From an uncultured Gemmataceae bacterium (GTDB taxonomy: Bacteria > Planctomycetota > Planctomycetia > Gemmatales > Gemmataceae): a DNA stretch of 64,000 bases. The notes under the pieces are model-generated. The model saw only the letters and a program-made list of their open reading frames with translations. It was not told the origin of the DNA and did not search any database. The stretch spans positions 384,001-448,000 of the forward strand of contig CAVVPN010000001.1 in assembly GCA_963750165.1 (NCBI GenBank). Direction: 5' to 3'. Shown here piece after piece: positions 13,603 through 15,184 of the stretch (its first letter is position 1; the number at the start of each line of letters is the position of its first letter). A program made the position numbers and the translations under genes.

Positions 13603-13789
13603 GGATTCTCACCGTCCGGAAGCAGCCCGCAGAAACCATTCGCCAACACCCTTGTCCCATTTTACCTAACCAGGGCGCCGTGCCAAGCGAAACTCTGCGC
13701 TGCGCCGACAGGTGAGTGACGCCGCTTACCCCCGAGCGGGTCCTGGCCGGGCGCGGCGGCGCGGCATACAACCGCGGTGTTGAGGGAAA

Positions 13790-14037
13790 CGGTGTCAGGG
13801 AGAACTAGCTTGGTGCTCTGCACCGTGGGCGATGTTGCGTCGCCCGAGCGGTTTGTTTGCGATTCGTCTCAGGGAAGGCTGTTTCAGGCTCGCCGTGGCC
13901 GTCGGGTTCGACTCGGGCGACGTCGGCCTGGGACAACCCCGCGGCCCGTGGTTCCGACATCGCCCGAGTCGAACCCGACGGCCGCGAGCCCGTGAGCCTT
14001 CCGTGACCCAAGCGGAGAAGTAGGTCTCCCGACACCG
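13790..14037 (+). ncRNA. Retron-type msr-msd ncRNA, unit 1
   Basis: a1/a2 inverted repeat 13790-13807 / 14021-14037; TAGC with putative branch G13808; hairpins GGTGC-TCT-GCACC and GGGCGATG-TTG-CGTCGCCC; long msd hairpin with a 30-bp stem 13897-13926 / 13954-13983. Confidence 0.8.
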
Positions 14038-14310
14038 CAGCGCGGACGGCCCGCGGCGGAGAACTAGCCCGGTGCCCTGCACCACGGGCGGCGTTGCGCC
14101 GCCCAGGCCGTTTGTCAATCGTTCGTCTCAGGGAAGGCTGTTTCAGGCTCGCTGTTCGGGTTACCCGATGAGGTAATTCTCATCAGCCTGGAACAACCGC
14201 GCGGCTCGCGGTTCTGATGAGAATTACCTCATCGGGTAACCCGGCGAGCCCGTGAGCCTTCCGTGACCCAGGCGGAGAAGTAGTTTGATGCCGTTGGGTC
14301 GTCCGCGCTG
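14038..14310 (+). ncRNA. Retron-type msr-msd ncRNA, unit 2
   Basis: a1/a2 inverted repeat 14038-14066 / 14281-14310; TAGC with putative branch G14067; hairpins GGTGC-CCT-GCACC and GGGCGGCG-TTG-CGCCGCCC; perfect 30-bp stem 14157-14186 / 14214-14243; followed by T6. Confidence 0.8.
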
Positions 14311-14488
14311 TTTTTTCCACAGTCCTTCCTTGACCGCCACCCACCCCGGCCGCCCAGCAACGAGAGCCCCGTTTACATTCCGCGCGGACTCAGCGCGCGC
14401 GAAACGGAGTGCTTGTTGACCGAGGGCGCGCGGCAGGGTCATCGGGTAGAATGGCCGCAGCGGTTTTCGTTGGCACGAGGAGCGAATC

Positions 14489-14782
14489 ATGAATACGTCG
14501 GTAACTGTGCAGGGGACACTGAAGCCCGATGGGACGCTGGAGCTGGATACCCGGCCAGAACTGCCGCCGGGCCGGGTCAGGGTCGTACTGCAACCACTGC
14601 CCGCCTCAGCAACAGCGCAGGAAGACTGGTGGCAGTACCTGCAGCGCGTGCGGGCCGAACGAGAAGCCGCCGGCTACCCTTTCATGAACGAGGCCGAAAT
14701 GGCAGCACATCTTCAGTGGCTGCGGGAGGATGACGACCGCATTGAGCGCATCTACCGGGAAATGGGGCAGGAGCAGTCCTGA
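14489..14782 (+). CDS. Putative antitoxin partner of the PIN toxin
   Basis: 97 aa ORF with GAGGAG RBS; stop overlaps the start of the PIN gene (TGATG). Confidence 0.7.
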   Translation: MNTSVTVQGTLKPDGTLELDTRPELPPGRVRVVLQPLPASATAQEDWWQYLQRVRAEREAAGYPFMNEAEMAAHLQWLREDDDRIERIYREMGQEQS

Positions 14783-15184
14783 TGCGCGTTTACTGCGATA
14801 GCGTCATCTTGATCTACTACCTGGAAGGAACGCCGCCGTTCAAGGCCCGGGCAGCGGCCCGGTTGGCGGCCTTGTGGGCCGCCGGAGACACGGTGGCGGT
14901 CAGCGACCTGGTCCGGTTGGAGTGCCGGATGCAGCCGATCCGATTCGGAAATACTTCTGCCCTCGCCGACTACGACTTGCTATTCGCCCAGCCCAATGTC
15001 GAGTGCGTACCCATCACGACGGCCGTTTTCGACCGCGCCACGTTGATCCGGGCCGCCCTCAATTTCAAGCTTGGCCGACTCCCTCCACCTGGCGGCCGCC
15101 GTCGAGTCCGGCTGCGACCGCTTCCTGACGAACGACACGCGGCTGTCCCGATTCTCCGACATCGCGGTGGAAGTGCTGCCGTAA
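14782..15184 (+). CDS. vapC: PIN-domain (VapC-like) toxin (frameshift near 15075)
   Basis: RVYCDSVILIY and LECR in the first frame; ADSLHLAAAVESGCDRFLTNDTRL in the shifted frame, ending TAA at 15184. Confidence 0.85.

Follow-up and report, generated by a model that had tools for sequence, protein, structure and literature searches.

Orphan tandem retron msr-msd units in a Gemmataceae genome, part of a dispersed RNA family very probably served in trans by one type XIII reverse transcriptase

Results

The locus and its two units

The window, i.e. the whole stretch of 64,000 nucleotides that was analysed, comes from an uncultured Gemmataceae bacterium (the host) and carries on its plus strand two abutting units, W1 (13790-14037) and W2 (14038-14310), which are almost certainly retron msr-msd genes, Mx162/Ne160-like and of type XIII. 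Their features are as follows.

13744..13772, +, putative sigma70-type promoter, TGGCCG-N17-TACAAC, like those of other host copies
13790..13807, +, W1 a1, 5' arm of the closing stem, pairing with 14021-14037
13808, +, W1 predicted branching G in TAGC; A-G-C is invariant in 35/35 aligned units
13812..13845, +, W1 msr hairpins 1 and 2; two-sided changes in 4/5 and 4/8 pairs, 98-100% paired
13856..14020, +, W1 msd, from which a msDNA of 160-165 nt beginning at G14020 is predicted to be copied; geometry equal to that of the Myxococcus xanthus unit
13894..13986, +, W1 variable stem with conserved top loop, unique in the host genome
14021..14037, +, W1 a2, pairing with W1 a1
14038..14066, +, W2 a1, abutting W1 and without a promoter of its own (sequence, folding)
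14067, +, W2 predicted branching G (sequence, A-G-C invariance)
14071..14104, +, W2 msr hairpins 1 and 2 (covariation, folding)
14115..14280, +, W2 msd, from which a msDNA of 160-166 nt beginning at G14280 is predicted to be copied (fold, geometry)
14157..14243, +, W2 variable stem, perfect over 30 bp, with an 18-nt dyad at 14167-14184
14281..14316, +, W2 a2 followed by T6, the possible end of a dicistronic RNA

In a preliminary description made from the letters alone, this stretch was read as a tandem array of two units of the same layout, each with terminal repeats that differ between the units and pair within the unit, a priming G in TAGC, two short hairpins and a long hairpin on a shared basal scaffold. 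This is the layout of retron msr-msd ncRNAs, in which a1/a2 inverted repeats end right before a conserved G and one to three short msr hairpins are combined with a long msd stem-loop. Re-reading of the sequence bore this out: the unit borders are as described, G13808 and G14067 both lie inside TAGC, which is the usual context of the branching G (PMC6868368, accessible part), and the short hairpins are found at 13812-13824 and 13827-13845 in W1 and at 14071-14083 and 14086-14104 in W2. W1 and W2 share direct repeats of 98 nt (82% identity) and 40 nt, the latter with the 39/40 identity reported for the scaffold (13873-13880/13995-14002 in W1, 14132-14139/14255-14262 in W2), and the 31/31 figure for the other block comes from counting by eye. 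The specificity of the terminal repeats was seen in the duplex energies, which were -25.4 (W1) and -32.0 kcal/mol (W2) for a1 with its own a2; with the a2 of six other units, W1 and W2 a1 reached at best -14.8 and -17.9 kcal/mol. A partial duplicate of W1 a1 lies just upstream at 13774-13787 and could also pair with W1 a2.

The stem arms are 33 nt long and 94% complementary in W1 (13894-13926/13954-13986) and 30 nt long and 100% complementary in W2 (14157-14186/14214-14243). RNA folding z-scores were -9.6 for W1, -13.4 for W2 and -16.5 for both together, with 0/200, 0/200 and 0/100 shuffled sequences, respectively, folding as well; as DNA, the msd folded with z-scores of -8.1 (W1) and -11.5 (W2). 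For the W1 msDNA, we infer the position of the 3' end. A 12-nt core of the W1 stem is shared with a stem from another genus (G012), and no synteny was found between the W1/W2 locus and the locus of that stem. Rfam gave no match to W1/W2 at the gathering level (7 weak hits).

Covariation was examined on 35 aligned units with the structure taken from one member (L030): two-sided changes were found in 46/65 pairs, and 92.5% of cells were paired, compared with 70.8% after shuffling and 33-46% in slid controls. The a1/a2 pairing scored -23.0 with the unit's own partner versus -12.5 with the partner from another genome. Of 80 parsed units, 78 were usable, and after five degenerate stems of the 78 were set aside, the stem was 29-30 bp long in 61/73 and free of mismatches in 54/73, the sequence of its interior being nearly free. 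Some members deviate from this pattern. In L277 and L310 (G011, G091), the msd interior lacks a long perfect stem, and this interior is alike in two congeneric species, G091 having it in identical form at two loci; in L112, L113, L017 and L167, a host-type repeat element in short tandem copies takes the place of the stem; and in L027 (G016:C1148), two units are joined head-to-head via the top loop, through either an assembly artefact or inter-copy recombination.

The putative promoter has its -10 element (TACAAC) at 13767-13772, and T6 follows W2 at 14311-14316. Four other host copies have the same -10 element and, at a distance of 17 nt, a -35 element TTGCCN, from which the W1 -35 element (TGGCCG) deviates; a consensus scanner listed neither a plus-strand promoter nor the T6 terminator for W1/W2. 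Across the family, the motif TTG[C/A]-N18-20-TAnnn[C/T] was found upstream of 59/78 units versus 1/78 control regions (at most 6 in 200 shuffles), and a terminator-like hairpin was found downstream of 48/77 units versus 6/77 controls. Most copies thus carry promoters and terminators, which suggests that they are whole transcription units and not cDNA debris. W1 and W2 are probably transcribed on one RNA and probably give rise to two msDNAs. Only 2 public sequencing runs matched (share 0.04), and the 18 RNA-library and 5 DNA contigs that cover 13787-14319 alone come from relatives and show neither transcription nor this organism.

A Ser/Thr kinase gene lies divergently upstream of the units, and a PIN-domain pair lies downstream. 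The pair, at 14489-15105, consists of a small gene followed by a PIN-domain gene, seemingly frameshifted, and resembles a toxin-antitoxin pair; the PIN match takes up the N-terminal 94 residues, and the frame runs on beyond it. Just 3' of W2, at 14356-14420, is a REP-like repeat with 37 BLAST matches in the host. No reverse transcriptase (RT) was found near W1/W2 in the window.

A dispersed family and its reverse transcriptase

Searches of the host genome with BLAST and a profile found exactly seven units at four loci, with W1 and W2 on contig C1, one unit each on C3 and C9, and three on C11. The C11 triplet is located directly 5' of a HEAT-HEAT-SWIM-RT_XIII operon, its units lying 12.8-13.7 kb upstream of the RT. 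These five further copies and the RT operon had escaped the preliminary description, whose reading of a tandem retron holds for the retron units but has to be corrected in that W1 and W2, on a different contig from the RT and not contiguous with it in one cassette, are an orphan pair very probably served in trans and belonging to a seven-member family.

The order of the C11 operon is HEAT-ARM (BRCT), IS200-like transposase, HEAT-ARM (WD40), SWIM (WGR) and RT, and PADLOC assigned RT_XIII (E 3.5e-164), SWIM_XIII (E 3.3e-189) and, twice, HEAT-ARM_XIII (E 0). RT_XIII, SWIM_XIII and HEAT-ARM_XIII are the defining genes of type XIII, whose members include Mx162, Mx65, Sa163 and Ne144 (PMC7736814, accessible part), so the type XIII gene set, with SWIM and HEAT/ARM linked to the RT, is present; the same order is found in G072 and G129. 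Type XIII RTs are clade-10 enzymes extended at the N-terminus, and by its RT_XIII profile match and its place in the tree the C11 RT is one of them. The C11 RT has the motifs YADD and NATRH (NAxxH), with ITG in place of a literal VTG; its best PDB matches are retron RTs, and it groups with myxobacterial Mx162-type RTs (SH-aLRT 100) in a tree from a quick search with 44 rows and a midpoint root. The IS200/REP-type transposase gene between both HEAT genes is at L008:13464-14300 (-). The first HEAT gene, like several genes of the second type XIII operon described below, looks frameshifted, perhaps by sequencing error. Further RT genes of the host (L001, L004-L007) include one of 603 aa, a split one and one of 858 aa.

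The resemblance to Mx162/Sa163 named in the preliminary description was confirmed by co-linear alignment with units of Myxococcus xanthus, Corallococcus, Pyxidicoccus and Archangium, which adjoin RTs 47-54% identical to the host RT. The distance from the priming G to the template start is 213 nt in M. xanthus, 213 nt in W1, 214 nt in W2 and 212 nt in Nannocystis exedens; the M. xanthus unit in this comparison was taken from named records and has the same CAGC context as Mx162 (PMC6868368, accessible part). Since Mx162 is 162 nt long and the geometry is equal, msDNAs of about 160-166 nt are expected from W1/W2.

Among 150 genomes of the host family, the RNA and the RT occurred together in 22, the RNA alone and the RT alone in 5 each, and neither in 118. 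The RNA was counted in 27 genomes (28 BLAST matches, one of which was dropped for lack of a profile match) and the RT, at >=60% identity, in 27/150. Because related genomes are not independent, no p-value is given for this co-occurrence, and most of the family genomes are fragmented metagenome-assembled genomes (MAGs). Two of the five RT-less RNA carriers are MAGs that have a SWIM orthologue at a contig end; of the five RT-positive genomes without the RNA, three have short contig-end pieces and two have none. Genomes holding only more distant RTs had the RNA in only 2/25 cases. Eight relatives have a unit that precedes the RT by 11-14 kb or more and shares its strand. It is therefore very likely that the C11 RT serves W1/W2 and the other copies in trans.

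The units could instead be MITE- or REP-type repeats, or RNA-only regulators that resemble retron RNAs. Palindromic repeats do abound in the host, where 1448 perfect inverted repeats >=18 bp were counted, and the Rfam result and the lack of an RT in the window would fit. However, the co-linear homology and equal geometry with the M. xanthus and N. exedens units, the linkage of units to the operon, at 11-14 kb 5' of the RT, in 9 genomes and the co-occurrence of RNA and RT make this explanation highly improbable.

Copy number varies among the relatives, with 24, 14, 11, 9, 8, 7, 7 and 6 copies in single genomes (three-motif pattern). Of the 23 true carriers, 13 have two or more copies and 10 have a single copy; one further genome and one host match proved to be false. 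The closed genome G129 has 11 copies and one RT of this kind. Named carriers and homologues are mostly Gemmataceae. A GTDB pattern scan returned at least 122 stretches, many by chance, with true units in Planctomycetota and Myxococcota, and a phylum-wide pattern scan matched 6/400 other genomes versus 13 for the reversed control, the 2 matches checked having no profile match. On viral contigs, one search gave 1 chance match, and in another 1/20 was genuine; a complete unit is present on an IMG/VR contig (L417:2968-3187), without an RT in the stretch examined.

Exchange of msd interiors

When G129 was compared with its sister species G148, 7/11 units had a flank match. Three of these have an identical msd, two have both flanks matching around a different interior, and two are one-sided and ambiguous. 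The replaced interiors have identities of 0.50 and 0.61, against a background of 0.57, while a2 is 91% identical. Furthermore, among 103 units of 14 genomes, five same-genome pairs at distinct loci have an 84-87 nt interior that is 100% identical, while the same pairs differ in promoters (0.35-0.60), a2 (0.56-0.77) and terminators (0.38-0.55); msr identity in these pairs is 0.74-0.98 versus a background of 0.91, one pair having almost the whole msr in common. As judged from sequence comparison, the msd interior (84 nt) thus appears to be exchanged between loci as a unit, and errors in MAG assembly may contribute to these pairs. The msDNA may be the donor of the exchanged interiors, although we consider this somewhat less probable than its opposite; RecA conversion anchored on the scaffold fits the exchange equally well, and the conversion tracts, which have no sharp stop at the boundary of the RT-copied part, argue against an msDNA donor. 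The analysis turned up no source of new stems.

In N. exedens DSM 71, two TAGC-primed units in tandem lie 5.6 Mb from an RT that is 67% identical, and we infer that this pair is Ne160. Its genome also contains five scattered msd fragments covering query positions 112-245; they fall inside the predicted RT-copied part (about 87-248), which fits msDNA as donor, and a local re-search added one further weak 24-nt match, in the msr region. The fragments are L360, L361, L363, L364 and L367; one is identical over 43 nt, and one appears to sit in Lys/Ala-coding sequence. In Minicystis rosea, one unit lies 1.9 Mb from the RT.

The preliminary description had named dispersed copies flanked by target-site duplications as the sign of a MITE. 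The copies are dispersed, but they lack such duplications: flanking direct repeats >=9 nt were found in 4/59 cases versus 4.5% of mismatched control pairs, and the terminal repeats differ from copy to copy instead of forming the common terminal inverted repeats of a MITE. Nor did any clean empty site emerge. The same result bears on a neutral or selfish explanation, in which the RNA gene is a SINE-type passenger of the RT, additional copies raise only the msDNA dose, stems drift within the limits set by pairing, and palindromes arise from template switching between the arms. This explanation is in keeping with the range of 1 to 24 copies among relatives, the msd fragments at scattered N. exedens sites, the existence of degenerate copies and the published reading of Ne160 as retrotransposition (PMC6868368, accessible part). 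However, full copies hold promoter, a1, msr and terminator, all of which an msDNA copy would lack; a1 and a2 differ per copy and yet pair; stem length is tightly held; and the second array described below is not palindrome-rich, which argues against a generic by-product of RT. We therefore regard it as rather unlikely.

Palindromes in the stems

Six-bp palindromes are in excess in the stems: 65 were counted in 56 non-redundant trimmed arms versus 28.7 +/- 5.4 in 300 shuffles (maximum 41), and 30/56 arms have dyads >=5 bp versus 8.6 expected. Other controls gave 149 palindromes versus 43.9 (column shuffles, 71 arms) and 69 versus 36.2 (dinucleotide shuffles, 55 arms), and the host's own seven arms have 12 versus 4.8. 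In the host genome, 62/64 six-bp palindromes are under-represented, GTCGAC being at 0.01 of expectation. Palindromes are depleted both in 211 other long host hairpins (54 versus 71.5, with a modest excess of dyads, 32 versus 17.1) and in 300 random host stretches (109 versus 154). The host has four N6/N4 methyltransferase genes. The correlation of stem palindromes with host-avoided sites, for pooled stems and one genome, was not significant (rho 0.24, p 0.056). A spacing of two sites by one helical turn in the dyads was considered; it was weakened once redundancy was removed and is not claimed.

No long match to the stems exists in the rest of the host genome, 50,697 phage and 72,556 plasmid records gave no significant match, and the 2/7 host stems searched against IMG/VR had no match; phages of these hosts are poorly sampled. 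Six 11-mers are common to stems across genera, versus 0.5 in shuffles.

The SWIM protein and a second array

The SWIM protein of the C11 operon (L008:5091-6962, -) was modelled with AlphaFold2 (111 sequences, mean pLDDT 80), and the top Foldseek rows for the model were sliding clamps only. Residues 55-354 superimposed on PCNA with Z 14.6 and rmsd 2.8 A over 210 residues at 8% identity, so that SWIM is predicted to have the PCNA two-domain fold; invariant Arg/Lys residues are found on four flanking helices. No match was obtained with the SWIM profile among PDB sequences, and an Atlas search returned SWIM clusters only. A transposase-like motif has been proposed for the SWIM region by Mestre et al. 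(PMC7736814, accessible part). A common fold by itself shows no function. It is possible, but not our expectation, that the modelled clamp fold grips the msDNA stem; such a grip would explain a duplex that is fixed in length and free in sequence.

Clamp folds, BRCT and WGR domains are known from DNA-damage signalling. All three are found or predicted in the C11 operon proteins, and the msDNAs might serve the host itself, either as high-copy palindromic decoys for host DNA-binding proteins or, with the hairpins as internal standards, in a damage or replication checkpoint of PCNA-fold, BRCT, WGR and HEAT proteins, with no phage sensing. The vertical inheritance of type XIII (PMC7736814, accessible part) would agree with such a role, as would the location of the loci among ordinary genes and not in defence islands, the conservation of the stem at 3 loci that are orthologous between two species and the 11-mers shared across genera. 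On the other hand, long matches to the stems are absent from the rest of the host genome, a patchy distribution (about 27/150 family genomes) is unlike that of a core function, and stems turn over between sister species. A role of this kind is rather unlikely, though clearly less so than repeats that merely resemble retron RNAs.

In a second type XIII operon of the host (WGR/HEAT, SWIM, RT), there are four msr-msd-like units in tandem, which differ from W1/W2 in the scaffold and from one another in the stem.

L284:7510-8590 (G000:C3 about 795510-796590), second array, between SWIM and the second RT_XIII

Relatives have from one to at least six units beside the same second RT. Its stems show no excess of palindromes (6 versus 5.1, 15 arms); multi-RNA panels therefore occur in two lineages, and the palindrome excess is specific to the first. 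The second RT_XIII was considered as a partner for W1/W2 and rejected, because it falls outside the clade of the C11 and myxobacterial RTs, is accompanied by an RNA array of its own and is not distributed in step with the W1/W2-type RNA.

Discussion

The best overall reading of these results, which we hold with about even confidence, is that a single RT, acting in trans, supplies a panel of hairpins that serve as baits. W1 and W2 would be transcribed together from one promoter, and the C11 RT would copy both in trans, recognising the conserved msr and basal scaffold and priming at the 2'-OH of G13808 and G14067, to give two branched msDNAs of about 160-166 nt. Accessory proteins, including the PCNA-fold SWIM, would hold the 29-30 bp duplex without reading its sequence, leaving the stem free to serve as bait. 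The seven host RNAs would display seven different palindrome-rich stems, and an invader protein that modifies, cuts or binds DNA would, by acting on any one of them, trigger the complex as in Retron-Sen2. The stem panel is most likely a broad sensor, and a bait function in defence may be as probable as its absence. Gene conversion, for which msDNA may be the donor, would exchange complete stem cassettes among the loci. The Sen2 trigger and the working engineered arrays discussed below lead us to favour the bait panel over the host role, the neutral passenger and the repeat elements.

Several observations speak against the bait panel. Type XIII is largely vertically inherited and non-defence roles have been suggested for it by Mestre et al. 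(PMC7736814, accessible part), and the literature searched holds no report of defence by any type XIII retron. A single copy in 10/23 carriers indicates that a panel is not required. The stems of the second array are diverse without an excess of palindromes, and 5/78 stems are degenerate.

A more far-reaching version of the bait panel, which is speculative and on balance unlikely, is a multiplexed, self-updating retron, in which one RT and a PCNA-like clamp complex present a library of 29-30 bp baits encoded across the genome, with up to 24 baits per cell, each matched to different palindromic sites of invader methyltransferases, nucleases or repressors, and in which msDNA rewrites the library by natural recombineering. 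If true, this would amount to innate sensing with a repertoire that can be renewed, and the Mx162 class of msDNA, for which the literature searched has no function in print, would gain one. M. xanthus msDNA, the first msDNA to be discovered, belongs to this family.

Comparison with known systems

A retron is defined by one RNA, one RT and one effector. The system described here departs from this definition by very probably having one RT for a dispersed gene family, and multi-RNA arrays are found in two separate type XIII lineages. In the largely open-access literature, no dispersed multi-RNA retron panel, stem exchange or type XIII clamp fold was found to be reported, and the accessible parts of PMC10849725, PMC8632793 and PMC8867640 contain nothing on dispersed multi-RNA retrons. 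Published retron pipelines searched near the RT (PMC7736814, accessible part), within a 10-kb window in the SPIRE survey (PMC13712802, accessible part), and surveys that look only there would miss the host RNAs, which are 12.8-13.7 kb upstream or unlinked.

The closest relatives are Mxa1 (Mx162) and Sau1 (Sa163), which like the host have RT_XIII, SWIM_XIII and HEAT-ARM_XIII genes and a co-linear RNA (PMC7736814, accessible part). In Myxococcus, however, a single CAGC-primed RNA immediately precedes the RT, whereas the host RNAs stand at the head of the operon or at unlinked loci; tandem pairs are found in Archangium and Hyalangium. The statement in the preliminary description that characterised retrons usually have one ncRNA needs a qualification, since duplicated copies without an RT have a precedent in Ne160 (Retron-Nex1), whose msr-msd repeats are described as several, duplicated and lacking an RT within 1 kb (PMC6868368, accessible part). 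Orphan, duplicated copies were thus already known in one organism, where they were read as retrotransposition debris; in contrast, there are 7 to 24 intact genes per genome here, with promoters and terminators, stems of fixed length that are rich in palindromes, and exchange of cassettes.

Retron-Sen2 is triggered when one GATC in its msd stem is methylated (10.64898/2026.10.13.758329, accessible part), and it resembles the bait panel in that the trigger is a palindromic site within that stem. Sen2 has a single RNA with a single GATC, and the site is read by an effector, RcaT, whereas the host has many RNAs and no known toxic effector. CRISPR arrays and diversity-generating retroelements (DGRs) work in a similar way only in so far as a constant scaffold carries exchangeable inserts (CRISPR) or diversification is linked to an RT (DGRs); the inserts of the host, in contrast, are self-complementary hairpins without a match in phage collections. 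Finally, in engineered multitrons, RT-DNA is obtained from every one of the msr-msd units that a transcript carries in tandem, and such DNA edits homologous loci (10.1101/2023.07.17.549397, accessible part). Multitrons are artificial, and W1/W2 would be their natural counterpart. If this is true, the C11 RT would be naturally multiplexed, would tolerate any 29-bp insert and would work in trans, which would be useful for retron engineering.
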